The position numbers and the translations under genes were made by a program. The notes below the pieces were generated by a model. It searched no databases and had not been told where the DNA came from. It saw nothing but the letters and a program-made list of their open reading frames with translations. A stretch of 64,000 nucleotides of DNA from Eledone cirrhosa. Lineage: Eukaryota. The stretch covers positions 46,686,001-46,750,000 of the forward strand of contig OZ024744.1 in the NCBI GenBank assembly GCA_964016885.1. Direction: 5' to 3'. Each line of letters begins with the position of its first letter. The first letter of the stretch is position 1. Below are positions 9,529 to 60,987 of this stretch, in pieces.

Positions 9529-9728
9529 NNNNNNNNNNNNNNNNNNNNNNNNNNNNNNNNNNNNNNNNNNNNNNNNNNNNNNNNNNNNNNNNNNNNNNNN
9601 NNNNNNNNNNNNNNNNNNNNNNNNNNNNNNNNNNNNNNNNNNNNNNNNNNNNNNNNNNNNNNNNNNNNNNNNNNNNNNNNNNNNNNNNNNNNNNNNNNNN
9701 NNNNNNNNNNNNNNNNNNNNNNNNNNNN
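9529..9728. other. assembly gap (200 N)
   Basis: Run of N. True length and continuity across it are unknown. Confidence 1.
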
Positions 9729-12700
9729 ATATACATACTTACTGTACGTCTGTATACATATATGTATGTATGTGTACATACTTATATTTAAGTAACAGCC
9801 GTACTAAGAGTGGGAAATGAAATTTAGTTTCATTTTTTCCGTTTATCGATTTCGGTGCACCCGGCCGATTAATCCACTCGATATGCAAATTAGGCAACTC
9901 AGCCGTTAATATGCATAAGGTAAGTATATACGTTCAACAATCTGGCAGGAAGGTATATGTTGCTGACGATAGCTAATAAGCTTGAAACTAGTACAGCGTT
10001 CCTTTGTCAGCGTTGAGCAAACGAGCAACGATGGTTGCTACACACTACGGCTTAATACGGGATGTTTGTTTACAAACACACCGAGCATTATAATAAATGT
10101 TCGGTGAATCCATACGTACATATATATATGTGTGCATGTATGAATATATATATACGAACTACTGTACGTCTGTATACATATATGTATGTACGTGTACATA
10201 CTTATATTTAAGTAACAGCCGTACTAAGAGTGGGAAATGAAATTTCGTTTCAATTTTTCCGTTTATCGTTTCCGGTGCACCCGGCCGATTAACCCACGCG
10301 ATATGCAAATTGGGCTACTCAGCCGTTAATATGCATAAGGTAAGTATATACGTTCAACAATCTGGCAGGAAGATTTACGTTGCTGACGATAGCTAATAAG
10401 CTTGAAACTAGTACAGCGTTCCTTTGTCAGTGTTGAACAAACGAGCAACGATGGTTGCTGGACACTACGGCTTAATACGGAATGTTTGTTTACAAACACA
10501 CCGAGCATTATAATAAATGATCGGTGAATACATACGTACACATATATATATATGTGCATGTATGTATATATATATATACATACTACTGTACGTCTGTATA
10601 CATATATGTATGTACGTGTACATACTTATATTTAGGTAACAGCCGTACTAAGAGTGGGAAATGAAATTTAGTTTCATTTTTTCCGTTTATCGTTTTCGGT
10701 GCGCCCGGCCGATGAACCCACTCGATATGCAAATTGGCCTACTCAGCCGTTAATATGCATAAGGTAAGTATATACGTTCAACAATCTGGCAGGAAGGTAT
10801 ACGTTTCTGACGATAGCTAATAAGCTTGAAATTAGTACAGCGTTCCTTTGACAGTGTTGAACAAACGATCAACGATGGTTGCTAGACACTATGGCTTAAT
10901 ACGGGATGTTTGTTTACAAACACACCGAGCATTATAATAAATGTTCGGTGAATCCATACGTACATATATATATGTGTGCATCTATGTATATATATATATA
11001 CATACTACTGTACGTCTGTATACATATATGTATGTACGTGTACATACTTATATTTAAGTCACAGCCGTACTAAGAGTGGGAAATGAAATTTCGTTTCGTT
11101 TTTTTACGTTTATGGTTTTCGGTGCAGCCGGTTGATTAACACACTTTAGTATAACGTTCCTTTGTCAGTGTTGAACAAACGAGCAACGATGGTTGCTAGA
11201 CACTACGGCTTAATACGGAATGTTTGTTTACAAACAGACCGAGCATTATAATAAATGTTCGGTAAATCCATACGGACACATATATATGTATGCATGTATG
11301 TATATATATATACATACTACTGTACGTCTGTATACATATATGTATGTACGTGTACATACTTATATTTAAGTAACAACCGTACTAAGAGTGGGAAATGAAA
11401 TTTCGTTTCATTTTTTCCGTTTATCGTTTTCGATGCACCCGGCCGATTAACCCACTCGATATGCAAATTGGGCTACTTCAGCCGTTAATATGCATACGTT
11501 AAGTATATACGTTCAACAATCTGGCAGGAAGGTATACGTTGCTGACGATAGCTAATAAGCTTGAAACTAGTACAGCGTTCCTTTGACAGTGTTGAACAAA
11601 CGATCAACGATGGTTGCTAGACACTATGGCTTAATACAGGATGTTTCTTTACAAACACACCGTGCATTATAATAAATGTTCGGTGAATCCATACATACAT
11701 ATATATATATATGTGTGCATGTATGTATATATATATATATATATACAAACTACTGTACGTCTGTATACATATATGCATGTACGTGTACATACTTATATTT
11801 AAGTAACAGCCGTACTAAGAGTGGGAAATGAAATTTCGTTTCATTTTTTCCGTTTATCGTTTTCGATGCACCCAGCCGATTAACCCACTCGATATGTAAA
11901 TTGGGCTACGCAGCCGTTAATATGCATAACGTAAATATATACGTTCAACAATCTGGCAGCAAGGTATATGTTGCTGACGATAGCTAATAAGCTTGAAACT
12001 AGTACAGCGTTCCTTTGACAGTGTTGAACAAACGATCAACGATGGTTGCTAGACACTATGGCTTAATACGGGATGTTTGTTTACAAACAGACCGAGCATT
12101 ATAATAAATGTTCGGTGAATCCATACGTACAGATATATATGTGTGCATCTATGTATATATAAATACATACTACTGTACGTCTGTATACATATATGTATGT
12201 ACGTGTACATGCTTATATTTAAGTAACAGCCGTACTAAGAGTGGGAAATGAAATTTCGTTTCGTTTTTTACGTTTATGGTTTTCGGTGCACCCGGCCGAT
12301 TAACACACTCTAGTATAGCGTTCCTTTGTCAGTGTTGAACAAACGAGCAACGATGGTTGCTAGACACTACGGCTTAATACGGAATGTTTGTCTACAAACA
12401 GACCGAGCATTATAATAAATGTTCGGTGAATCCATACGGACACATATATATGTGTGCATGTATGTATATATATATATACATACTACTGTACGTCTGTATA
12501 CATATATGTATGTACGTGTACATACTTATATTTAAGTAACAGCCGTACTAAGAGTGGGAAATGAAATTTCGTTTCATTTTTCCCGTTTATCGTTTTCGAT
12601 GCACCCGGCCGATTAACCCACTCGATATACAAATTGGGCTACTCAGTCGTTAATATGCATACGTTAAGTATATACGTTCAACAATCTGGCAGGAAGGTAT

Positions 12701-14978
12701 ACGTTGCTGACGATAGCTAATAAGCTTGAAACTAGTACAACGTTCCTTTGTCAGTGTTGAACAAACGATCAACGATGGTTGCTAGACACTATGGCTTAAT
12801 ACGGGATGTTTCTTTACAAACACACCGTGCATTATAATAAATGTTCGGTGAATCCATACGTACATATATATATGTGTGTGCATGTATGTATATATATATA
12901 TATACAAACTACTGTACGTCTGTATACATATATGTATGTACGTGTACATACCTATATTTAAGTAACAACCGTACTAAGAGTGGGAAATGAAATTTCGTTT
13001 CATTTTTTCCGTTTATGGATTTCGGTGCACCCTGCCGATTAACCCACCCTAGTATAGCGTTCCTTTGTCAGTGTTGAACAAACGAGCAGCGATGGTTGCT
13101 AGACACTACGGCTTAATACGGGATATTTGTTTACAAACACTCCGAGCAGTATAATAAATGTTCGGTTAATCCATACGTACATATATATATGTGTGCATGT
13201 ATGTATATATATATTCATACTACTGTACGTTTGTATACATATATGTATGTACGTGTACATACTTATATTTAAGTAACAGCCGTACTAAGAGTGGGAAATG
13301 AAATTTCGTTTCATTTTTTCCGTTTATCGTTTTCGGTGAACCCGGCCGATTAACCCACTCGATATGCAAATTGGGCTACTCAGCCGTTAATATGCATACG
13401 TTATATATATACGTTCAACAATCTGGCAGGAAGCTATACGTTGCTGATGATAGCTAATAAGCTTGAAACTAGTACAGCGTTGCTTTGTCAGTGTTGAACA
13501 AACGATCAACGATGGTTGCTAGACACTACGGCTCAATACGGGATGTTTGTTTACAAACACACCGTGCATTATAATAAATGTTCGGTGAATCCATACGTAC
13601 ATATATATATGTGTGCATGTATGTATATATATATACAAACTACTGTACGTCTGTATACATATATGCATGTACGTGTACATACTTATATTTAAGTAACAGC
13701 CGTACTAAGACTGGGAAATGAAATTTCGTTTCATTTTTTCCGTTTATCGTTTTCGATGCACCCAGCCGATTAACCCACTCGATATGTAAATTGGGCTACG
13801 CAGCCGTTAATATGCATAAGGTAAATATATACGTTCAACAATCTGGCAGGAAGGTATACGTTGCTGACGATAGCTAATAAGCTTGAAACTAGTACAGCGT
13901 TCCTTTGACAGTGTTGAACAAACGATCAACGATGGTTGCTAGACACTATGGCTTAATACGGGATGTTTGTTTACAAACGCACCGAGCATTATAATAAATG
14001 TTCGGTGAATCCATACGTACATATATATATGTGTGTGCATCTATGTATATATATATACATACTACTGTACGTCTGTATACATATATGTATGTACGTGTAC
14101 ATGCTTATATTTAAGTAACAGCCGTACTAAGAGTGGGAAATGAAATTTCGTTTCGTATTTTACGTTTATGGTTTTCGGTGCACCCGGCCGATTAACACAC
14201 TCTAGTATAGCGTTCCTTTGTCAGTGTTGAACAAACGAGCAACGATGGTTGCTAAACACTACGGCTTAATACGGAATGTTTGTCTACAAACAGACCGAGC
14301 ATTATAATAAATGTTCGGTGAATCCATACGGACACATATATATGTGTGCATGTATGTATATATATATACATACTACTGTACGTCTGTATACATATATGTA
14401 TGTACGTGTACATACTTATATTTAAGTAACAGCCGTACTAAGACTGGGAAATGAAATTTCGTTTCATTTTTCCCGTTTATCGTTTTCGATGCACCCGGCC
14501 GATTAACCCACTCGATATACAAATTGGGCTACTCAGCCGTTAATATGCATACGTTAAGTATATACGTTCAACAATCTGGCAGGAAGGTATACGTTGCTGA
14601 CGATAGCTAATAAGCTTGAAACTAGTACAGCGTTCCTTTGTCAGTGTTGAACAAATGAGCAACGATGGTTGTTAGATACTACGGCTTAATCCGGGATGTT
14701 TGTTTACAAACAGACCGAGCATTATAATAAATGTTCGGTGAATCCATACGTACATATATATATGTGTGCATGTATGTATATATATATTCATACTACTGTA
14801 CGTCTGTATGCATATATGTATGTACGTGTACATACTAATATTTAAGTAACAGCCTTGCTAAGAGTGGGAAATGAAATTTCGTTTCATTGTTTCCTTTTAT
14901 CGTTTTCGGAGCACCCGGCCGATTAATCCACTCGATATGCAAAGTGGGCTACTCATCCGTTAATATGCATAAGGTAAG
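9729..14978 (+). repeat. ~420-bp tandem satellite carrying hammerhead ribozymes (retrozyme-like), with ~312-bp deleted variants
   Basis: Unit anchor ACTGTACGT at 9741, 10161, 10585, 11007, 11319, 11752, 12172, 12485, 12911, 13222, 13642, 14064, 14375, 14795. Confidence 0.97.
9931..10018 (+). ncRNA. type I hammerhead ribozyme (representative; 10 copies)
   Basis: Stem I AYGTTG/CAGCGT, core CTGACGA 9963-9969, stem II AGCT-AATA-AGCT, GAAA 9984-9987, palindromic ACTAGT, cleavage triplet GTA 9991-9993. Other cores at 10383, 10807, 11542, 11974, 12707, 13444, 13864, 14597, 19983. Confidence 0.82.
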
Positions 14979-15256
14979 TGTTGTATGGACTGGGAATCGA
15001 ACTCACAACCTCATTGTTGTATGGACTGTTAAATTCGTTTTATACAATTTACACCTTCTCACACATTTGCATATGAATCACGTGACCTGGGCAGTCTGTT
15101 AGCGTTGGTATTAAAAACTCGGTCACAGACTGCTGCTGTCACTTACGTTATGTTATTCTGTTACTGTGAGGAGGGGCGTTTTGGTTGTTTCGTACAACAC
15201 ACAAATTATTTGATATAACTCGTGTTTTCTCTGCGAGTACCGAGAGGAATACAACA
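14979..15256 (+). repeat. 5' LTR (278 bp)
   Basis: Matches 19659-19939 with about 9 substitutions and one 3-bp indel by eye. Confidence 0.95.
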
Positions 15257-15341
15257 GAGTTTATTGTCGTCGCCGATAGGATTTACCTACATTGCCGATA
15301 CGATTTACCTACATTGCCGGGAAATTGTTTATCATAAAAAC

Positions 15342-18300
15342 ATGGCGGAACAACAAACAGCGGAGCTAATAAAGTTGTTTAGAGAACAGATGGAACAACA
15401 GATGCAACAACAGGAACAACAAATGCAACAACAGGAACAACAAATGCAACAACACAAGAAAGATATGGACACTCTGATAAAACTGTTTGGTGCTCGAGAT
15501 TCTGAACAACAGAGTTTATTGGCGTCGCCTGTTGCTTCGACACCAACAGCATTCATCCCACCATTTGCTGCTTTTGATTTAACAACAGAACTATGGCCTG
15601 ATTACTGGTCAAGATTCTGTACGATTGTGGCTGCTAACGCTGTACCCGAGCAACGCATGGCAAAAGTGTTCCTGACTAATCAGACGGCTGCTATCTACAA
15701 ACAACTTGCAAATCTGGCTGCTCAACAAAATCCGCCTAAGGATATCAACAAGTTGACAATGGACGAAATTGTTGACTTCATGAAAGAACAGTTCGACCCA
15801 AAACTTTTCATTGTGAGAGAACGTTTCAAGTTCTGGAGTGACATGCAACGGAAGCCAGGCGAAACTCTCCAGGAGCTGGCAGCACGTATACGTCAGGATG
15901 CAGCTACCTGTGATTTTCCTTCGATCACAAATCCACAAGATGAAGCTCTAAGACAGAGATTTATATGTTCTGTCAATAATGAAGCTGTGTTGAAGACTAT
16001 TTTCAAGATCAATGATACAGAACTAGATTTCGCCCGTGCTGTCCAAGTTGCCATCGGGCCCGAAGACGCAGCAAAGGTTACCAAGGAAACTGTTTACGGT
16101 TCCAAAACCAAGCAAGTCTACAAGGTCCAGCAGAACAAGAACAAGGGTCCTCTAAAGAACCATCAGCAGTCTTATTCCACAGACCAGGAGATGTGCTACC
16201 GATGTGGAAAGGCCCACAAAGCGACAGACTGCCCCTTCAAAGAAGCCAAATGTCATTTTTGTGACAAAAAGGGACATTTGCAAGCGGTGTGTAGAAAGAA
16301 ACAATATCAGCAACATAATCATCGCTCACAGAATTACGTAAAAAGAATCACGAAAGCTGAGCTAGTCAAGGCAATCCTTGGTGAAGTTCCCCACGATACT
16401 CATAGTTTGAATGTGCCAATAACAATCCAGAACAGACTTTTCGCAATGGAATTTGACACAGCTACTACAGGCAATTTTGTTTCCTTGTCAGTTTGGAAAC
16501 AATTAGGAAAACCGAAGCTGCAAGATGTCAAACATCGGTTTGAATCTGCCAGCAAGCACGACCTGCCCGTTCTGGGAACTTTCTTGGGCCAAACTAAGGA
16601 TCCAACGACCGGTAAACGGAATTCAATACCCTACATCGTCACCAAGATCCCTGATCTTAATTTGTTGGGACGAAACGCTATCCAGACTCTGGGAATTTCC
16701 GTGGACAATGCTCTAGGATTGAAAAGCATAGACAGTCAGGCCAAGAGTGAGGGTGCAGAAGTGATGCATCCAAAGACCTCAAATGAGCCCTATATTTCCA
16801 TGCAACGAGATTGTCAAATGTGTGATGAATTACCAGATCTCTTCAAGCAAGAATTGGGATGTCTTAATGACTTCGAACTGGAAGTGAAGTTCAAGTCGGA
16901 CGCGACACCAGTCTTTCACAAGGCACGCCCGGTCCCGTTTGTTCTTCGTGATGACCTGGCCAAAGGCTACGAAGAAGGCATCGCCAAAGGAATCTGGAAG
17001 CCAGTACAGTTCAACGAATACGGAACGCCAGTGCTACAGATTCGTAAAGCACATACTTCAGGCAACCTGAAGCCCAAACTACGGAGTTGTGGTGACTACT
17101 CTGTGGGAATTAATGACCAACTTGCAGATCATCGTCATCCAATGCCAATCCCAGAGGAACTGATGCAGAAGCTCGGAGGTGGATTCGGATACACAAAGAT
17201 TGATCTTGCTGATGCCTATAATCAGATCAAGCTGGCTCCAGAAAGTCAACGCAGGCTTGCACTCAGCACTCACCGTGGGGTGCTCCTGCAGGAACGACTC
17301 CCTTTCGGAATCAAGTCAGCACCTGGTTACTTTCAGGAGATCATGGAAAACCTGACTCAAGATCTACCTGGTGTGGCCGTCTTCCAGGACGACATGCTCG
17401 TCAGTGGGAAAGATGCAAACGATCACCTGAACAACCTAAAGTGTCTGCTTACACGTCTGTGCGACAAAGGACTCAGATGTCGCCGTGACAAGTGCCAGTT
17501 TGCACTACCCAGTGTGGAATACCTTGGACACACCTTGTCGGCTGAAGGGATCGCGAAGGGATCCAAGGTCGAAGCAGTTTTAAAGATGCCACCTCCAACG
17601 AACGTCTCAAGCTTGAAGTCTTTCCTGGGTTCAGTTCAGTTATATGGAAAGTTTATCCCAAACCTAGCCAGCATGGCAGAGCCACTCCATTGCCTTACGA
17701 AAAAAACGACTACTTGGAAGTGGGGAGATGAAGAACAGTCAGCTTTCGATCAGTTGAAAAATGTGCTTTCATCGGATCGAGTTCTGATACACTTCGATCC
17801 AAACAAAACTTTGGGACTGGCTTGCGACGCGTCAAACGTTGGTATTGGAGCAGTCCTGTTTCATCGCTATCCTGATGGAAGCGAGCGCCCAATATCCAAT
17901 GTGTCCAAGACTCTTACTTCTGCACAGCGGAAATACGGCCAAATTCAAAAGGAAGGAAGTTGGCCATCATATTTGGCTTGCAGAAGTTCTATCAGTATCT
18001 GTACGGACATCAGTTTATACTCGTAACTGACCACAAGCCACTGACATCACTTTTCAGTCCGAGGAAAGGGACGCCACTTCTCGCTGCTAACCGACTAGCA
18101 CGGTGGGCCCTGTGGCCGAACCAGTTTGACTACACCATCGAATATCGGAAAACAGCGGATCATGGCAATGCAGATGCCCTCAGTCGCTTGCCATTTGGTA
18201 ATGACATCGACTTTGACAGGAAGGAAAATGGTGAAGACATGGACATGGTGTGCACCATCAAAGCTCTCAGTCTTCAAGTCCAACCTATCGATGCTAACGT

Positions 18301-18571
18301 CCTCCGTCAAGAGTCAGGGAAAGATCCAGTGATATCTACAGTGATACGCTACGTCCGTGAAGGCTGGCCACCAAAGAATACTGAGATCAATGACGAAGTC
18401 AATAAGTTCCGGAAGTTATCGGATTCACTCAGTATCTGCCACGGATGCCTTATCCATGGACCGAGAGTTGTGATTCCACATAACCTACAGCCAAAGATCC
18501 TCAATCTTCTGCATCTCGGACACTTTGGCATGGAGCGCATGAAACAATTGGCAAGAACTGCTGTTTATTAG
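15342..18571 (+). pseudogene. gag-pol (two CCHC knuckles, protease, RT, RNase H, integrase zinc-binding start)
   Basis: ATG at 15342. CYRCGKAHKATDC and CHFCDKKGHLQAVC knuckles, FDTAT protease, FQDDML RT, CDAS and TDHKPL RNase H. Frameshift near 17955 and TAG at 18569-18571 where YWPGID is expected. Confidence 0.93.
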
Positions 18572-19624
18572 CCTGGTATCGATGCTGCTATAGAGAAAAC
18601 CAGTCGACAATGTGATTCGTGTGGTGAACATCAAAACCAGCCATCCAAGTCTCCAGTTCACCCATGGATGTTACCTGAAAAGCCGTGGAGCCGCTTACAC
18701 CTGGACTACGCAATAAATTTCATGGGCAGTAATTGGTTGGTGATCACGGATGCTTATTCCAAGTATCCATGCATTCGTCCTACGTCATCCACGTCCTCCA
18801 GAGCCACTTTAGATCTGCTTGAAGAAGACTTTGCGCACTTCGGATTTCCTCACACGCTAGTCACCGATAACGCACCAACTTTTATTTCTGAGGAGTTCCA
18901 GAGCTGGTGCAAAGAACGTGGGATCACGCACCTGACAGGGGCACCTTACCACCCTGCTACCAACGGAGCAGCTGAACGTTTGGTGCAGACCTTCAAACAA
19001 GCTCTGAGGAAGACTTCTCTTCCGCCGAAGCGAGCACTTCAAGAGTTCTTGATGCAGTACCGGAGAACACCGACATCCAGTGGATTCTCTCCGAGTGAAC
19101 TTTTGAATCACCGGCAGATACGGACAAGGATTGATTCTCTGCTACCCTCGCCAGCACACATCACTCAAGGCAAGCAGTCTAAGGAAGCATATAAGTCTCA
19201 GATGACTCCGGACTCGGCAGGTGTCGCTAAGGTTACCAGGCAGTACAAGGCTGGAGATCCTGTGTATGCACTGTACTACGGACCTCGCCAAGACAAAGAT
19301 CCCCGATGGGTACCAGCAATCATTAAGAAGGCATTGGGTACTCGCTGCTTCAACGTTAAGGTCATACCTCATGGCCCGGTGTGGAGACGACACTGGGAAC
19401 AGCTGCAACCGCGGTACACTACTGAGGAAGACAATGAACCTGGTGATGCAGTAGACACTGTTTTTGAATTTGCAACAGATCACCCGATGGAGATCTCGGA
19501 AATCGTGCCACTAACTCCAAGACAGACCAGACCCAAGACCTTATTGCCCGTTCCAGAGTATGGACCAGACAATCGAAGACGGTCCAAGAGAACTCGTAAA
19601 CCTCCAGAGAGACTTTGCTGTTGA
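18572..19624 (+). pseudogene. integrase portion of Gypsy pol
   Basis: PWSRLHLDY, VTDNAP and YHPATNGAAER D,D(35)E motifs, in frame after the premature stop. Confidence 0.92.
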
Positions 19625-19658
19625 TGCTTCTTTTGTCGCATCAATTTCGGTGGGGAGG

Positions 19659-19939
19659 TGTTGTATGGACTGGGAATCGAACTCACAACCTCATTGTTGT
19701 ATGGACTGTTAAATTCGTTTTATTCAATTTACACGTGCTCACACATTTGCATATGAATCACGTGACCTGGGCAGTCAGTCAGCGTTGGTATTAAAAACTC
19801 GGTCACAGATTGCTGCTGTCACCTACTTTATGTTATTCTGTTACTGTGAGGAGGGGCGTTTTGGTTGTTTCGTACAATACACAAATTATTTGATATAACT
19901 CGTTGTGTTTTCTCTGCGAGTACCGAGAGGAATACAACA
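19659..19939 (+). repeat. 3' LTR (281 bp)
   Basis: Follows the PPT, ends ATACAACA, then the TSD. Confidence 0.95.
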
Positions 19940-20285
19940 GTAAGTATATACGTTCAACAATCTGGCAGGAAGGTATACGTTGCTGACGATAGCTAATAAG
20001 CTTGAAACTAGTACAGCGTTCCTTTGACAGTGTTGAACAAACGAGCAACGATGGTTGCTAGACACTACGGCTTAATACGGGATGTTTGTTTACAAACACA
20101 CCGAGCATTATAATAAATGTTCGGTGAATCCATACGTACAAATATATATGTGTGCATATATGTATATATATATACATACTACTGTACGTCTGTATACATA
20201 TATGTATGTACGTGTACATACTTATATTTAAGTAACAGCCGTACTAAGAGTGGGAAATGAAATTTCGTTTCCTTTTTTTCGTTTA
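19940..20285 (+). repeat. continuation of the hammerhead satellite after the LTR element
   Basis: Resumes exactly at GTAAGTATATACGTTC. Core at 19983, last anchor at 20181, ends at (TA)n. Confidence 0.95.
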
Positions 20286-20950: not shown

Positions 20951-21599
20951 GGCATAGGTTAAGAATAACGTCCTCGAAATTGAAACTAGTTTTTCTGACA
21001 AGCGAATGTGTTTTTTTTTTTTTTACAATGAAATTTACGATACACTCTTTGTTTATTTACAACAGGTCTCTATAGTGATATGGTGTTAATTAGTATTGCA
21101 TGTGTGATTATTTTCTCTTATATATATATATGTGTGTATATATAGGTGTCTGTATGTATATATATATATGTGTGTTTGTATATATATGTGTGTTTGTGTC
21201 ATCATCATCGTTTAGATGTTTTTACCCAATCCCTTATCATTCTCTGTCCTTCTTATGACCCGGCCTTAATTTGTTTATAGTTGGTGCCAACTTTGGCAAG
21301 ATATTACAAAAACATCTAAACGATGATGATGACACAAACACATATATATATACAAACACACATATATATATATACATACAGACACATATATATACACACA
21401 TATACACACCCACACATATATATATATATAAGAGAAAATAATCACACACGCAATACTAATTAACACCATATCACTATAGAGACCTGTTGTAAATAAACAA
21501 AGAGTGTATCGTAAATTTCATTGTAAAAAAAAAAAAAAACACATTCACTTGTCAGAAAACCTAGTTTCAATTTCGAGGACGTTATTCTTAACCTATGCC
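20951..21599. repeat. long inverted repeat (~270-bp arms, ~85-bp spacer)
   Basis: GGCATAGGTTAAGAATAACGTCCTCG... pairs with ...CGAGGACGTTATTCTTAACCTATGCC. Inner ends CGTTTAGATGTTTT / AAAACATCTAAACG. Confidence 0.92.
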
Positions 21600-23659: not shown

Positions 23660-24737
23660 TTATATGTGTATGTGTGTTGAACAATGAACATAAAACAAAA
23701 GACTACCTTGAGGAGAAGAATATGGAAGTTGAAGGACCCCACAGCCAGTGACAAATTTAAAAACTTATTACTTGATGCTTTTGACAGTAAAGAAGAGCAA
23801 TTAGAGATGTACAATATAGAGGAACAGTGAAAATTCTTGAAAGAGAACCTGTTGAAAGCGATAGATGAAATCTGTGGCTGGAACAGGCCCATAGGCAGGA
23901 GGAGTGTAACTTGGTGGTGGAACAGTAAGGTGGAGGAGACAATCAAAGCCAAAAAGCAGGCTTGGAAAGTATGGAGGAAGTAGAGAACACTATCAAGTGG
24001 CTAGGAGACAAGTGACCCTTGCAAAAAGGGAAGCACAATGTGTCAAGGAAAATTGTGATATTGTCAGGGAGAAGTGAGTCTGTAATGATAATGGTGTACT
24101 TGCCCTCACTTTTACTGATAAGAAGATAGCTTGGAAGAGTTACTATGAGAGACTACTAAATGAGTAGAATAAATGGGAAAAATATAGTCTGCCCCATCTC
24201 GATCCAATAGAGGGACCAGCGGTGCAAGTTAAAGGTAGTATAATAAGTAAGGCAATCAAAGATATGAAGACAGGCTAGGCAGCTGGGCCTTCGGAGATAG
24301 TTGTTGAGATGTTGAAAGCATCTGGAATAGTGGGACATACTATGGTCACCCAGATAGTAAACCAAGTAATACAGAATGGGGTCATACCAAAGGACTGGTG
24401 TAGCAGCATCATCATTAACTGCTACAAGGGTAAAGGGGATGCTCTAGATAGGGGAAACTGTAGAGGCATTAAGTTAGTTGACCAGGTCATGAAGGTCACA
24501 GAGAGCGAATTGATCTAGATGAAATGCAGTTTGAGTTTGTGTCAGGTAAAAGTACCACAGACCCTCTTTTCCTTGTACGACAACTACAAGAGAAGTACCT
24601 AGCTAAAAGTAAACCCCTCTACTTAGCTTTTGTTGACTTGGAGAAAGCCTTTGACAGAGTCCCCCGCTCCATTATCTGGTGGGCTCTTAGAAAACTAGGT
24701 GTAGATGAATGCTTATGAGAGCTATACAAGCCATGTA
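23660..24737 (+). mobile_element. degraded RTE LINE (EN-RT linker and RT start)
   Basis: CYKGKGDALDRGNCRGIKL and AFVDLEKAFDRVP with stops. Ends at (TA)n. Confidence 0.9.
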
Positions 24738-24780
24738 TATGTATATATGTATATATATACATGTATACATATATATATAT

Positions 24781-27128
24781 GTTCAGGATTGCCAGGCAAT
24801 GTGTCAAGGAAAACCGTGATATTGTCGGGGAGAAGTGTGTACTTAACGATGATGGCATACTTGCCATCACCGACGCTGATAAGAAGGTAGCTTGGAAGTG
24901 TCACTACGAAAGGCTTCTAAATGAGGAGAACAAATGGGAGAAAGACAGTCTCCCCCAGATCGATCCAATAGAGGGACCAGCAGTGTTAGTTGAAGGTAGT
25001 ATAATAAGTAAGGCAATCAAAGATATGAAGACGGGTAAGGCGGCTGGGCCTTCGGAAATAGTTGCTGAGATGCTGAAGGCATCTGGTTCGGTGGGACACA
25101 CCATGGTCACCCGGATAGTTAACCAAGTCGTACAGAATGGGGTTGTTCCGAAGGAATGGCGTAGCAGCATCATCGTTAACTGCTATAAGGGAAAAGGAGA
25201 TGCCCTAGATAGGAGTAACTATAGAGGCATTAAATTAATCGACCAGGTCATGAAGGTCACGGAAAAAGTAATAGCGCAACTAATCAGAGAGAGAATTGAT
25301 CTAGATGAAATGCAGTTCGGGTTTGTGTCAGGCAAAAGTACCACAGACGCTCTTTTCATTGTACGACAACTACAGGAGAAGTACCTAGCTAAAAGTAAAC
25401 CCCTATACTTAGCTTTTGTCGACTTGGAGAAAGCCTTCGACAGAGTCCCCCGTTCCATTATCTGGTGGTCTCTTAGAAAACTAGGTGTTGACGAATGGCT
25501 TGTGAGAGCTATACAAGCCATGTATAAAGAAACAGTCAGTAAGGTTAGAATTAACAACGAATATAGTGAAGAGTTTAGCGTAAAAGTTGGTGTCCATCAG
25601 GGCTCTGTACTTAGCCCCCTACTATTTATTATTGCCCTTCAGGCTATAACAGAGGAGTTCAAGACCGGCTGCCCATGGGAACTCCTATACGCAGATGATC
25701 TAACGCTCATAGCTGAATCAATGACCGAACTAGAGAAGAAATTCCAAACGTGGAAGCACGGCCTAGAATCAAAAGGCCTTAAAATTAACCTGGCTAAGAC
25801 TAAAGTTCTAGTTTGTAGGAAAGAAAATAAGGCGGCGGTCCCATCGGGGAAATGGCCATGCTCAGTGTGTAGGAAAGGCGTAGGTAGAAACTCCATTTTA
25901 TGTCCCAAATGCAAAGTATGGGTGCATAAAAGATGTAGTGGGATCACAGGTAAGCTAACTAAGAACATAGATTTTACATGTGGCCGGTGCTCTGGTGCAA
26001 TAAGTAGCAGCAAGTGCCCACAAAATACTAGCTCCTTCAACTGCGCAGAGGGTTCTATAGAAATAGTGGACAGCTTCCGTTATCTGGGTGACAAAATCAG
26101 CAGTGGGGGAGGGTGCTCTGAAAGTACAGTAGCTAGAGTCAGAACTGGATGGAAAAAGTTCAGAGAGCTTATACCACTATTAGCCGCTAGAGGGTTCTCC
26201 CTAAAAATGAAAGGCAGGTTATACGATGCCTGCATACGAACAGCAATGCTGCATGGCAGTGAGACCTGGGCATTGTGTGCAGAGGATATACGCAGATTAG
26301 AGAGGAACGAAGCTTGCATGCTCCGCTGGATGTGCAATAGTAATATACGCGAACGGCAAAGCATAAACGAACTAAGGAAAAAATTAGAAATAAGAGGGAT
26401 CAGATGTTGTTTACTCGAGAGAAGGCTACGTTGGTACGGTCACGTGATGCGCATGAAAGACGACAGCTGTATAACAAAGTGCAGGGCAATAAAGATAGAC
26501 GGTAGCCACGGAGTAGGCAGACCCAGAAAAACATGGGACGAGCTGATAAATTCCGACCTCACACGCTTACACCTCTCCAAGACAATGTCACTGGACCGAG
26601 ACCTTTGGCGGTACTCAGTAATAGAGAAGACCCGCCTTACCTAAATACAAAGTAAAAACCTACTACAGTCAGTAGGCACCTCTATCAAAACACACCCCCG
26701 TCCCACCACCTCCACCCCACCCACACCGCCCCTTTCAATGTAAAGTTATGTTGGTCCCACAACATCCAGGCCGAAACAAATGAGATCGTGTAGGTGTCAC
26801 GACAAAAAACACACAGTCCACGCTGTAAATGTGGCCGTGTAGGCAACACGGTAAAAACCTCCCAGCCCCACACTGTAAATGTGGTTGGTGTTAGGAAGGG
26901 CATCCAGCTGTAGAAAACCCGCCAGACAGTCCACGCTGTAATGTGGCCGTGTAGGCAACACGGTAAAAACCTCCCAGCCCCACACTGTAAATGTGGTTGG
27001 TGTTAGGAAGGGCATCCAACTGTAGAAAACCCGCCAGACAGTCCTATGCGAGCAAGACAACCACTCTTGCCTCAAGTGGGAAAACCCCCGTCCAAACCCA
27101 TGCAAGCGTGGAACACGGACGCTAAACC

Positions 27129-31524: not shown

Positions 31525-32235
31525 TATATATATGTATATATATGTGTATATGTATATATGTGTGTGTGTGTGTATATATATATTTATATATGTATATGTT
31601 AAACCTATGTTGACATGTCACCAGGAGAGGAGATGATAGCTACGTTAGAAAGTGCTATCAGAATGAATTTTTCGCTAAACTGCCATAGAGCAGACCTCCC
31701 AAGAGATAGAAGGATAACATTTATAGAATATGCTTGAATACCACTGCTTACATTGGAGAAAATTGCTCTGGACAGGAAAGTTGATATCTACAGTTTATCA
31801 ATATAGAAATATAAAATGTCCACTGTTAAATCTATCTCTACTTCTTAAGTATTCTCTATTATCTCATACTGTTTCTTTCTTATTTCAGAATGTCAGATGA
31901 AATTTGGATAAATTATTATTTTCAATCTTGGATACATCACCTCTATTTATCATCATTTGAAGACTAAAACATTTTAAACAGAACTTATATAACACTGTTT
32001 ATATAAATCTATAGTTCAATTACTGTGAAATATTTCCTCAGAACTGAGTTTATTTTCTTCACTGTGAGATGATTTTGTATTTTAGCTAAACTTGGGTGAA
32101 ACATAAGTTTGTATTATCTGCAGATATTAACAGAAATTACAGTTGAGGGAAATATAGAAGAAGAAATATTTTTAGGAATATAATATAAGAAATATTACAA
32201 GTAAAACATTTGTGTATTCTGTTGAAGAAAAAATC

Positions 32236-33429
32236 ATGGAAAATATGTTGACTGAGAAGATCAAATGTGAAACACAATCTAAAGTGTTTAGTATTCCTGG
32301 TGAAATGACAAAGGTTAGAGAAGAGATGCCATATCACTCTGATATCTGTGGTAAATCATTCAATAAACGTAGTACCTTAACTACTCACAAAGTTAAACAT
32401 ACAGGAGAGAAGCCATATTGTGATATCTGTGGTAATTCATTTTCTGATGGTAGTACCTTCACTAAACACAAACGTATACACTCAGGAGAGAGGCCATATC
32501 ACTGTGATACCTGTGGTAAATCATTCTCTGTTATTACTACATTAACTAGCCATAAACGTACACATACAGGAGACAAGCCATATCATTGTGATATCTGTGG
32601 TAAATCATACTCTGTAAGTAGTTCCTTAACTAGCCACAAACATATACATACAGGAGACAAGTCATATCATTGTGATATCTGTGGTAAATCATACTCTGTC
32701 AGTATTGCCTTAACTAGACACAAACGTACCCATACAGGAGACAAACCATACCACTGTAATATCTGTGGTAAATCATTCTTTACTAGTAGTAACTTAACTA
32801 GACACAAACGTACACATACAGGAGACACGCCATATCACTGTGATATATGTGGTAAATCATTCTTTACAAGTAGTAACTTAACTAGACACAAACATACCCA
32901 TACAGGAGACAAGCCCTATCAGTGTGATATCTGTGGTAAATCATTCTCTGTAAGTAGTTCCTTAACTAGCCACAAACGTATACATACAGGAGACAAGCCA
33001 TACCACTGTGATATCTGTGGTAAATCATTCTCTGATAGTACCACCTTAACTAAACACAAACGTACCCATACAGGAGACAAGCCATATCACTGTGATATCT
33101 GTGGTAAATCATTCTCTCAAAGTAGTGCCTTAACTACTCACAAACGTACACATACAGGAGACAAGCCATATCATTGTGATATCTGTGGTAAATCATTCTC
33201 TGAAAGTTATCACTTAACTAGACACAAACGTACACATACAGGAGAGAAATCATATCACTGTGATGTCTGTGGAAAATCATTCTCTCAAAGTGGTCACTTA
33301 ACTTCCCACAAACGTACCCATACAGAAAACAAGCCATACCACTGCGATATCTGTAGTAAATCATTCTTTGAAAGTAGTCATTTATCTAAACACAGAGGTA
33401 TACATAGATGTAAGAAACCATATCACTGA
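32236..33429 (+). CDS. C2H2 zinc-finger protein, 13 repeats (12 canonical)
   Basis: [16 protein letters not shown] repeats. First ATG at 32236. Splice acceptor TTTCTTTCTTATTTCAG ends at 31888. Confidence 0.93.
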
Positions 33430-40529: not shown

Positions 40530-41675
40530 TGTGTAAGGACATGTTGCTGAGGTTTAATTGGTCAAATAGTCTATGGTGGTGAGTGGGAAATTGTGAGATA
40601 GGTAGCCATCATGACATATATCATCACAAGAGATTCATGGGAAATAAGCAGATACAAGTAGGCATATTAGACAAGGCAAATATGCAAGAATTTCGAAGAT
40701 GGTCACCTAGCTTCGTAAACACCAAAATGAATGAGTGAGAGAAAGGGGAGGTAATGGCGGGGGTTGTTTGTAGAGAAAGACGCAATGTCTAACATGGTTT
40801 ATATCAAAAACAAGGTCGAAGTATATATGTTGTGGAAACAAGTGAATGATAATAATAATAATGTAAACAGAACATTTTGAAATTGGGGAAGAGAGATAGG
40901 TGTAGAATAGAAATAATCTATGGATGTCTGAGATATAAGTTATATATATATTGTGGTGTCAAGCTGTGTCAGCCATTGCCTTTCCCTTGGACAACATATA
41001 TAGTGTATAATATATATTGTACACAGTGTATATCTATATAGTGTATATATATGTTGTGATGTCAAGCTGTGCATTTTAAGTATTCTCTATTATGTCATAC
41101 TGTTACTTTCTTATAAGTCCTATAAGATTGCATTTTATGCTAAACTGCCATAGAGCAGACCTCTGAAGAGATAGAAGGATATAATTTATAGAGCATGCTG
41201 GAATACCACTATTTACATTGGAGAGAATAACTCTGGACAGGAAAGTTGCTATCTACAGTTTATCAATATAGAAATATAAAATTTCCACTGTTAAATCTAT
41301 CTCTGCTTCTAAAGTATTCTCTATTATCTCATACTGTTTCTTTCTTATTTCAGAATGTCAGATGAAATTTGGATAAATTATTATTTTCAATCTTAGATAC
41401 ATCACCTCTATTTATCATCATTTGAAGACTAAAACTTTCTTAACAGAACTTATATAACACTGTTTATATAAATCTCTCGTCGTATTACTGTGAAATATTT
41501 CCTCAAAACTGAGTTTATTTTCATCACTATAAGATGGTTTTGTATTTTAACTAAACTTGGGTGAAACATAAGTTTGTATTATCTTCAGATATTAACTGAA
41601 ATATAGAAAAAGAAATATAATATAAAAAATATTACAAGGAAAACATTTGTATATTCTGTTGAAGAAGAAATAATT

Positions 41676-42863
41676 ATGGAAAATAAATTGACTGAGAAGA
41701 TTAAATGTGAAACACAATCTAAAGTGTTTAGTATTCCTGGTGAGATGATGAAGGTTGGAGAAGAGAAGTCATATCACTGTGATACCTGTGGTAAATCATT
41801 CAATAATCGTAGTACCTTAACTACTCACAAAGTTATACATACAGGAGATAAGCCTTATCATTGTGATATCTGTGGTAAATCATTCAATAATTGTAGTACC
41901 TTAACTACTCACAAGCGTATACATACAGGAGACAAGCCATATCACTCTGATATCTGTGGTAAATCATTCAATAAACGTAGTACCTTAACTACTCACAAAG
42001 TTATACATACAGGAGATAAGCCATATCATTGTGAAATCTGTGGTAAATCATTCTCTCGAAGTAGTAATTTAACTATTCACAAACATATACATACTTGTGA
42101 GAAGCCATATTGTGATATCTGTGGTAAATCATTCACTGAAAGTAGCACCTTAATTAAGCACAAACGTATACATACAGGAGATAAGCCACCTCACTGTGAT
42201 ATCTGTAGTAAATTATTCTCTGATAATAGTACCTTAACTTCTCACAAACGAACCCATACAGCTGAGAAACTATATCACTGCGATATCTGTGGTAAATCAT
42301 TCTCTCAAAGTAGTTCCTTAACTAGCCACAAACGTGTACATATAGGAGACAAGCCATATCACTGTGAGATCTGTGGTATACCATTCTCTGTTAGTAGTAC
42401 CTTAACTAGACACAAACGTACACATATAGGAGATAAGCCATATCACTGTGATATCTGTGGTAAATCATTCTCTCGAAGTAGTCACTTAACTAGCCACAAA
42501 CATATACATACAGGAGACAAGCCATATCACTGTGATATCTGTGGTATATTATTCTCTCAAAGTAATGCCTTAACTAGCCACAAACGTATACATACAGGAG
42601 ACAAGCCATACCACTGTGATATCTGTGGTATATCATTCTCTCAAAGTAGTCACTTAAATACTCACATACGTACCCATACAGGAGACAAGCCATATCACTG
42701 TGATATCTGTGGTAAATCATTCTCTGAAAGTAGTTCCTTAATTAAGCATAAACGTACCCATACAGGAGACAAGCCATATCACTGTGATATCTGTGGTATA
42801 TCATTCTCTGGAAAAATTAGCCTAACTACTCACAAACTTATACATGCAGAAGAGAAATCATAA
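41676..42863 (+). CDS. C2H2 zinc-finger protein, 13 repeats (12 canonical), paralog of 32236-33429
   Basis: Same N-terminus [20 protein letters not shown]. Acceptor ends at 41353. Decayed finger sequence continues to ~42990. Confidence 0.93.
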
Positions 42864-59468: not shown

Positions 59469-60857
59469 CAAAAAGCAAGTGAAACCCTGGTGCCGAGGAG
59501 AAAGAACAAAAGGAAGCACGTCAGCTCTGCAGACCCAAAGGTGTGTGCAGCCAGAGAACACCTGAAAGCTGCCAAGGACCAATTCTATGCTGATCCTACG
59601 GAGGAGAGGATGGAGACTGTGGAGGTGATGAGGAAAGAACTTTGTACCGCTTACACTGAGGCCAGAAAGGAGGCACTGATAGAGTAGATCAAAAGCGTGG
59701 AGAGAGCGGTTGACGGGTCTGGATGTAAGGAGAGCTGGATGATCATCAACGAGATCACAGGGAAGAAGAGAAGGTGTTAGAGTCAGATCCAGGGAACAGG
59801 GCCTGAGAAAAGGAAGAGGAAATGGCTAGACCATTTTAGGACCCTACTAGGAGAGCCGCCCTCCACGGCCCAGAGCACTGGGGAGATCAGGCGGCTGTTT
59901 GAGGAACTGGATATTGAGACAGAGCCCTTCACCAGAGAGGAGCTTCAGAGAGCCAAGAAGAAGATCAAGGAGGGAAAGGCTCATGGAGAAGAGGGAGTTA
60001 GATCAGAGGTGATGAAGAGGTGTGATTTTGATGATATAATCCTGGGGTTCTGTAACCAGGCACTGGAGAAAGGAGTTTCCCCGAATCAGTGGAGGATCAG
60101 TAACATCGTCCCAGTTCCAAAGAAGAGAGATCTCTCTAACAACAACAACTACAGGGGGATCTCACTGACGTCACGTATGGCAAAGACCCTCAACAGGATG
60201 ATTCTTAACAGGATCCAGCTTGAGATGGAGAAGCAGCTCGGGGACAACCGGAACGGCTTCAGAGAGGGAAGATCAACCACCAGTCACATCCTGATGCTGA
60301 GGAGGATATTAGAGGGAGCTAGAGCAAAGTGCCTTCCTGCGGTCATGTTTTACATTGACTTTAGGAAGGCCTTTGATTCTGTGGACCGTCACTGCCTAAT
60401 GAAGATCTTACAGGCTTATGGAATCCCCAAGAAGATAGTGGACCTGATATCATTGCTCTACACTAACATCAAAGCCCAAGTCATTACACCTGATGGGATG
60501 ACAGAGTTCTTTGAGATACTGGCTGGAGTGCTCCAGGGAGATACATTGGCTTCCTACCTTTTTATCATCGTAGTGGACTATTGTATGCGCATTTCACTGG
60601 AGAAACACCAGGAGTCTGGCTTTACTGTAACACCGGCTCAGAGCAGGAGAGTTAAGGCGAAAAAGATATCGGATGCTGAATTTGCCGACGACATAGATTT
60701 GGTGACAAATACAGTGAAGGAGGCAGAGGATTTGATGCGAGAGGTTGAGACTGTGTCGATGAGTGTGGGGCTGAGAATGAATGAGAATAAAACAAAATAT
60801 CTGGTAGAGAATGTTGAGAAGCCAGAGGGGATCACTAATGTAGGCGGTAAGCCTAAA
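59469..60857 (+). mobile_element. RTE-like LINE linker and RT, degraded
   Basis: NYRGISL, IDFRKAFDSV, GVLQGDTLA, FADDI. Cut by (TA)n. Confidence 0.9.
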
Positions 60858-60987
60858 TACATATATATGTATATATATATATGTATTTATATATATATAC
60901 ATATATATGTATTTATATATATATAGATATATATATGTGTTTATATACATATATATACATATATTTATCTATATACATATATATGTA

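Follow-up and report, generated by a model that had tools for sequence, protein, structure and literature searches.

A hammerhead retrozyme family of Eledone cirrhosa and its very probable insertion by Penelope-like elements

Tandem units that each carry a self-cleaving motif may be a satellite, a relic or copies of a mobile RNA, and the question of which they are, and of how they entered the genome, is raised by positions 9729-20285 of a 64-kb stretch of Eledone cirrhosa DNA (the window; G000:C28:46686001-46750000, in a genome of 3.0 Gb). The initial annotation described this interval as a tandem satellite with ten type I hammerhead ribozymes. The hammerheads are those of a real retrozyme, and the term satellite does not describe its nature: the family is a dispersed retroelement without long terminal repeats (LTRs), a non-LTR retrozyme, which is locally expanded and very abundant. 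The ends of its insertions very probably result from the enzymes of Penelope-like elements (PLEs). The annotation left open whether the family was new; the class was published in 2020, this family is an addition to it, and the copy ends that show PLE-type insertion are the new part. The window array itself is an old, damaged example, whose value lies in the family to which it belongs.

Hammerheads of the array and their family

All ten extended hammerhead copies of the window lie on the plus strand:

9932..10018, + strand: type I hammerhead 1, predicted cut after 9993
10352..10438, + strand: type I hammerhead 2, predicted cut after 10413
10776..10862, + strand: hammerhead 3, damaged, predicted cut after 10837; first stem-I pair broken (10806), C15.2 changed to U (10832)
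11511..11597, + strand: hammerhead 4, predicted cut after 11572
11943..12029, + strand: hammerhead 5, predicted cut after 12004
12676..12762, + strand: hammerhead 6, predicted cut after 12737; stem-I U.G pair changed to U-A (12740)
13413..13499, + strand: hammerhead 7, predicted cut after 13474; N7 variant (13448)
13833..13919, + strand: hammerhead 8, predicted cut after 13894
14566..14652, + strand: hammerhead 9, predicted cut after 14627; weak Rfam HH9 match
19952..20038, + strand: hammerhead 10, predicted cut after 20013

The type I core, defined by C3-A9, G12-A14, A15.1-U16.1 and an NUH triplet with an open-ended stem I, was present in nine of the ten window copies and in 58 of 67 copies from loci picked by an anchor outside the ribozyme. 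A type I descriptor matched the window nine times on the plus strand and not once on the minus strand, and it gave no match in 100 Markov-resampled 64-kb sequences. Core and stem I are intact in nine of the ten full units; the count of ten therefore holds for extended copies and not for intact ones, the 10776 copy being damaged. Stem I consists of six pairs adjoining the core and continues past an internal loop, and the fold of this long stem reached z = -3.1 to -3.7 in all three window copies tested. Stem II has four pairs above a U-U, and in helix III a palindrome closes a single A-U pair. The changes reported at N7 (13448) and from G-U to A-U (12740) were found as described and fit the fold. 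The broader statement that the variation fits it did not extend to the stem-I and C15.2 damage at 10776, nor to further window copies with changes in the extended stem I.

The Rfam Hammerhead models, which had been proposed as a check, gave a mixed outcome. The scan of the window found nothing at gathering score, and of the 100 matches listed when 9700-11200 was scanned by E-value, most were TA-rich sequences resembling microRNAs and none was a hammerhead; HH9 matched one 101-base copy with 19.7 bits (E 0.0057; gathering score 52). In a two-unit transcript, the calculated energy of a double hammerhead was -147.7 kcal/mol, compared with -141.1 kcal/mol for two single catalytic folds, and cleavage in dimers is plausible on this folding model. 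The reading as a retrozyme-like type I array whose palindromic helix III favours dimer cleavage was upheld. The U-U at the base of stem II had been entered as a caveat, which does not weigh against the ribozyme: in the axolotl, both such a stem II base and a one-pair helix III occur among retrozymes that cleave, better as dimers, according to the available text of PMC7229834, HHR_Amex2 being the U-U case. By sequence, one PLE family of the present genome has this mismatch as well.

The units are tandem, low in GC, non-coding and without LTRs, with a hammerhead in each, and they occur from monomers to multimers dispersed across the genome, as is characteristic of non-LTR retrozymes; some subfamily-B and family-C units, of 465-500 bp, exceed the 150-450 bp used as the size range of that class. 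No open reading frame (ORF) of at least 150 aa lies inside the units, and the reverse transcriptase (RT) plus GIY-YIG ORF of an autonomous PLE is absent. ARAGORN found no tRNA from which the unit could have originated. As far as the available text describes them, the metazoan non-LTR retrozymes (Cervera and de la Pena 2020, PMC7229834; Acropora, Mytilus, axolotl Rtz331/Rtz353, newt satellite 2) likewise consist of non-coding repeats a few hundred bp long, arranged in tandem and each bearing a single type I hammerhead; their GC content is below 50%, they lack LTRs, their copies number tens of thousands, and PLEs occur in the same genome. The one-pair helix III with palindromic tetraloop resembles HHR_Amex1, and the U-U at the stem II base resembles HHR_Amex2. 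With a unit of 420-500 bp, the present family is at the upper extreme of the size range. Its dimer-dependent helix III is of the amphibian type, whereas most invertebrate retrozymes are said to cut as monomers in the part of PMC7761336 that bears on this.

The genome-wide copy count that had been called for was obtained with an exact 33-nt core (23,244 copies) and with an exact 30-nt anchor outside the ribozyme (32,695 copies), the reversed-pattern control being 0 in both cases. A pattern with stem II left free recovered 10,791 further, related cores that do not overlap the exact set; among the first 100 of these listed, 98 have a fully complementary 4-bp stem II, and 3,072 of the 10,791 fit one variant of a sister family, C. 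Judged by sequence, a read-through transcript could be cut at ~34,000 genomic sites. A second large array of the first family, with at least ~50 units, lies at G000:C28:116221336-116241999 (L070, L169, L170).

Family C has a 465-bp unit (463-469 bp), and its sampled copies are mostly 99-100% identical (L171-L185, L222-L251; for example G000:C4:52768972-52770909 and C1:5738326-5752444). Unit length is nearly constant inside an insertion and differs between insertions, and inverted arrays reach ~31 units in one arm. Compared with the first family, all 13 core bases are kept, while identity elsewhere is 57% (211/369). Stems I and II have been rewritten with their pairing retained, through four double-sided changes and no broken pair, and the stem II base is G-C. 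Covariation between subfamilies and families therefore supports both stems. Within 185 copies from 70 sites, a sample partly selected on the ribozyme from which copies not spanning most of it were dropped, the variants common to at least seven sites are confined to bulges, loops, N7 and stem-I pair 3, the last being U.G (46), G.U (22) or A-U (3). Rare variants per column amounted to 0.54 in the core and 0.65 elsewhere at 37 unbiased sites, the core rate being near background, as expected of copies that decay after insertion. Therefore, a core that mutates as freely as the rest of the unit genome-wide, which had been named as a refutation, is the wrong test, since dead copies are expected to show it. 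The hammerhead fold is under selection, which is visible only between subfamilies and families, and the family is likely to be active in cleavage.

Insertion ends and Penelope-like elements

The counts given here exclude insertions at locus edges and matches that are shorter than 40 bp or lie wholly in the TA-rich start. The 3' ends of 100 insertions are of two kinds, at unit positions ~54 and ~110, and 56 nt apart. The sample was partly chosen on the ribozyme; 49 of its insertions are two-armed, with a partial tandem and an inverted 5'-truncated copy. A short end is paired with a long one in 37 of these and one is long-long, none being short-short and 11 having a damaged, unclassifiable end, so that the tail is one-sided in 37 of the 38 classifiable cases. 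TA-rich DNA adjoins 111 of 126 defined 3' ends, compared with 26 of 69 other ends. The flanks are mostly (TA)n, a sequence in which target-site duplications, longer than 4 bp where retrozymes have them, are hidden. The window array shows the same ending, as its 3' segment stops at the long end (unit position ~110), where (TA)n follows:

20230..20285, + strand: ~56-nt tail with a terminal hairpin, between both fixed 3' ends of the family

Endonuclease-bearing PLEs are described (Craig et al. 2021, PMC8557442; PAc of Anolis, PMC11167929; both as far as their available text goes) as being marked by partial tandems, an inverted truncated copy, a tail on one side only and (TA)n targets; they also carry a hammerhead near the repeated end, and the PLE tail corresponds to the gap between two internal start sites of reverse transcription in vitro (PMC11167929). 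Unlike these elements, the retrozyme has no ORF and many units per insertion. The tail length printed for PLEs is 30-40 nt, compared with 56-59 nt here and 77 nt in family C; autonomous PLEs of the same genome (L056, L060, L062, L064) have tails of ~50-63 nt and the same pairing of short and long ends. Long RT plus GIY-YIG frames occur in this genome. The Penelope RT, a guess when first put forward, is thus backed by the footprint at the insertion ends, and we conclude with high confidence that PLE-type enzymes insert the retrozyme copies.

RNA circles of retrozymes and the hypothesis of their mobilisation by PLEs had already been published. Within the available text of PMC7229834, the accounts of metazoan retrozymes report target duplications; a pair of fixed ends, inverted arms and tails do not appear there. 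The study of Xenopus retrozymes (Li, Clavereau, Pollet 2026, bioRxiv 10.64898/2026.07.22.740005) agrees that retrozymes are non-autonomous partners of PLEs. In the text available, it rests on co-occurrence and pseudo-LTR (pLTR) homology in 35 genomes, no mollusc among them, and the strings 'mollus', 'cephalopod' and 'tail' have no occurrence. Here, the evidence consists of the insertion footprint and the uniformity within insertions; pLTR kinship to an autonomous PLE was found in none of 38 loci, which came from 150 scored of 10,596 GIY-YIG candidates. The literature search returned no description of this family or of tails or inverted arms on retrozymes, although the supplements of PMC7229834 and of the 2026 preprint, PMC5785218, Repbase and Dfam may list the family. 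The available part of the Octopus vulgaris repeat annotation (PMC13282606) has no mention of ribozyme, hammerhead or retrozyme.

One autonomous PLE family (L054, L055, L058, L064) has a hammerhead 3' of its frame, with a U-U stem II base and a palindromic one-pair helix III. Its tail is ~50 nt long and it has no sequence match to the unit; on these features the partner could structurally be this family. A unit also lies near each of two GIY-YIG loci (L061, L062), which were rejected as partners because unit and PLE are separate insertions into TA runs there, and PLE frames lie near 7 of 201 loci, by position only. Other, unrelated hammerhead motifs with a longer helix III were seen near PLE loci L041/L065, L056, L060 and L063 and apparently belong to other repeats; the genome contains several hammerhead families.

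The copied template and competing explanations

The inserts run through the cleavage site, where 103 5' truncation points show no accumulation, and on the 3' side they end ~220 or ~277 nt beyond the predicted cut. The linear cut monomer is therefore not a simple template and was rejected as one. In 21 two-armed insertions, units of the same rank on the two arms differ by 165 mismatches, compared with 169.9 expected from out-of-register pairs (lower in register in 8 insertions, higher in 12). This lack of excess likeness in register disfavours an aged multi-unit RNA as template. Uniformity inside insertions was followed in a set that included 20 regions chosen for containing several cores, those with an internal divergence of at most 1.2% being classed as young. 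Nine young subfamily-B insertions hold eight haplotypes, which are 3-19 substitutions apart and each at most 0.8% diverged internally, and the 11 full units on both arms of L221 contain five singleton variants. Taken together, the equality in register, the uniform units and the 3' ends away from the cut favour the view that one monomer was copied repeatedly; that it was a circle is probable, though only somewhat more so than a template of another form.

The best explanation, which is favoured with moderate confidence, is a non-autonomous non-LTR retrozyme that uses the RT/GIY-YIG protein of a PLE, one monomer being copied repeatedly as a circle. In read-through RNA over at least two units, paired (double) hammerheads would release monomers of ~420 nt, and these would then be circularised. 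The PLE protein would nick (TA)n DNA and begin to reverse-transcribe at two internal sites separated by ~56 nt, each start giving one arm of the inverted insertion. The same monomer would be copied again and again, straight through the cleavage site, up to a random stop. The window copy would then have aged in place, as a deletion arose locally, unequal exchange duplicated blocks of units and an LTR retrotransposon was inserted. The most specific form of this scheme, in which rolling-circle target-primed reverse transcription on a ribozyme-made RNA circle yields two inverted concatemers of one monomer per event, is held at even chances.

Several observations weigh against this explanation. The double hammerhead lies 7 kcal/mol above the free minimum (-154.7 kcal/mol), and 8 of 9 predicted Xenopus retrozyme dimers remained uncut in vitro, in the available text of the 2026 preprint. 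In the unbiased subset, shared variants affect 0 of 13 core columns and 11 of 74 others, a difference that is weak alone, and none of the 38 GIY-YIG loci shares sequence with the unit. The young subfamily-A insertions have a single haplotype (L025 equals L221, and L202 is one change off). In family C, the distances within and between insertions are similar inside a subfamily. A homogeneous tandem source could explain both; the family-C comparison is not discriminating, and overlapping loci of one site were counted twice in it. Of 39 insertions, only ten are internally more similar than they are to the nearest other site, though 37 surpass the median, and L157 has a two-unit pattern. Moreover, assembly polishing may homogenise tandem units, and in Anolis, PLE insertion in vitro proceeds without hammerhead cleavage, uncut RNA being the main template (PMC11167929, available part).

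The last result leads to a clearly less probable alternative, which keeps the PLE-mobilised retrozyme and replaces the circle by a linear template, either uncut multimeric read-through RNA of young, still homogeneous arrays or a short RNA that template jumping copies many times, so that the hammerhead would only trim or regulate. The normal insertion of ribozyme mutants in that PLE system (same source) and the haplotypes common among young A and C insertions agree with it. Nevertheless, the many distinct, internally uniform subfamily-B haplotypes would need repeated one-monomer bottlenecks, and the missing in-register likeness in the 21 insertions, the retention of the ribozyme across families A, B and C and the failure of the core-less variant to spread all speak against it. 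Amplification at the DNA level is improbable. Here, the units of single insertions derived from pLTRs would have multiplied by tandem duplication after insertion, extrachromosomal circles or unequal exchange, and the hammerhead would be a relic. The block duplication and the fourfold private deletion of the window array, the ~50-unit array at C28:116.2 Mb with its many partly shared variants, and the local amplification proposed in the 2026 preprint (text available in part) are in line with this. It does not account for the same young haplotype in several units of both inverted arms (L221, L202, L208, L165), nor for the compensatory stem changes between families, which point to continuing selection. 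An ordinary satellite with a chance hammerhead-like motif deserves practically no credence: it could draw on the silence of Rfam at gathering score, and it is refuted by the covariation across families, besides conflicting with the resampled windows and with dispersed copies that have fixed ends.

If copying of a single circular monomer by a PLE protein is correct, the insertions would be direct evidence for the proposed life cycle of retrozymes and would assign a function to PLE-type hammerheads, in a family young enough (99-100% identical copies) to be active now. How animal retrozymes move and what role PLE hammerheads have are stated as open in the available texts of PMC7229834, PMC7761336, PMC8557442 and the 2026 preprint. 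Both questions become testable here: there are at least 34,000 cores that differ in age and a young sister family of near-identical copies, long PLE frames are present in this genome, two start sites of reverse transcription are mapped, and the cut site is predicted.

History and surroundings of the window array

The array comprises 14 units and a terminal partial unit, and its parts are as follows:

9729..14978, + strand: 5' segment of the retrozyme array, made up of 9 full units (418-433 bp), 4 deletion units and, from a split unit, the first ~188 nt
11003..11314, + strand: deletion unit, 312 bp, without core; junction 11134-11164
12168..12480, + strand: deletion unit, 313 bp, without core; junction 12298-12328
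12907..13217, + strand: deletion unit, 311 bp, without core; junction 13037-13067
14060..14370, + strand: deletion unit, 311 bp, without core; junction 14190-14220
14979..19939, + strand: Ty3/gypsy-type LTR retrotransposon, 4.96 kb; a later insertion, not retrozyme, which splits the array
19940..20285, + strand: retrozyme array, 3' segment; remainder of the split unit, tenth hammerhead and terminal partial unit

Units of ~420 bp with a core account for ten of the 14 (418-433 bp); the other four, of 311-313 bp, lack the core and had been missed by the initial annotation, as had the LTR element and the damage to the 10776 copy. The interval 9729-20285 is retrozyme on both flanks only. Nearly half of it is the gypsy-type element, with LTRs at 14979-15256 and 19659-19939 that are ~3% apart, a 5-bp target duplication (14974-14978 and 19940-19944), and a broken coding region in which the RT, RNase H and integrase domains sit in three separate frames. 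A 200-N gap at 9529-9728 hides the 5' boundary of the array.

The window units are ~5-6% apart from each other. The genome contains the deletion junction four times, every time in this array; the 14060 deletion unit has the same diagnostic variants as the 12168 unit, which reflects local duplication, and the block 11748-12906 resembles 13638-14790 by such variants. The resemblance of the blocks and the fourfold window-private junction indicate that the array was expanded by local DNA duplication after insertion, and that the LTR element split it afterwards. What remains of the ribozyme in the deletion units, namely the cut site, the 3' arm of stem I and the greater part of the helix III palindrome, might allow a full unit next to them to cleave them in trans.

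An octamer-like block is present at ~10302-10311 and at the same place in each full unit; families A, B and C all have it unchanged, although the sequence with which it pairs varies. Repeats of the newt satellite 2 type have an octamer and a proximal element in common with small nuclear RNA (snRNA) genes. A tandem array of ~42 U2 snRNA genes with a ~2.2-kb period was noticed at G000:C3:307349256-307453739. Four U2 upstream regions showed neither a full octamer nor a clear match to the unit, and an snRNA-type promoter in the unit is thus not supported by them. When contigs of four sequencing runs of unknown kind were compared with one unit, no variant reached 5% at 10388-10412, a result of little weight, as contigs show no RNA ends and the best-matching run may be the assembly's own source. 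Pieces of the unit also occur in contigs of two further organisms (1 and 21 contigs), to which little weight is given.

The array is located within a zinc-finger cluster, where two open frames of ~418 aa encode tandem C2H2 fingers with an 84-bp repeat (window 32176-33429 and 41607-42863). Close to the array, a foldback element of ~650 bp (20951-21599) has inverted arms that are 90-98% complementary, with TA-rich inner parts. LINE-type RT frames lie at 24719-26644 and 59781-60926 of the window and at 2566-5710 of L069; in two of these, a PHD finger follows the RT, and the one in L069 also encodes an APE endonuclease.

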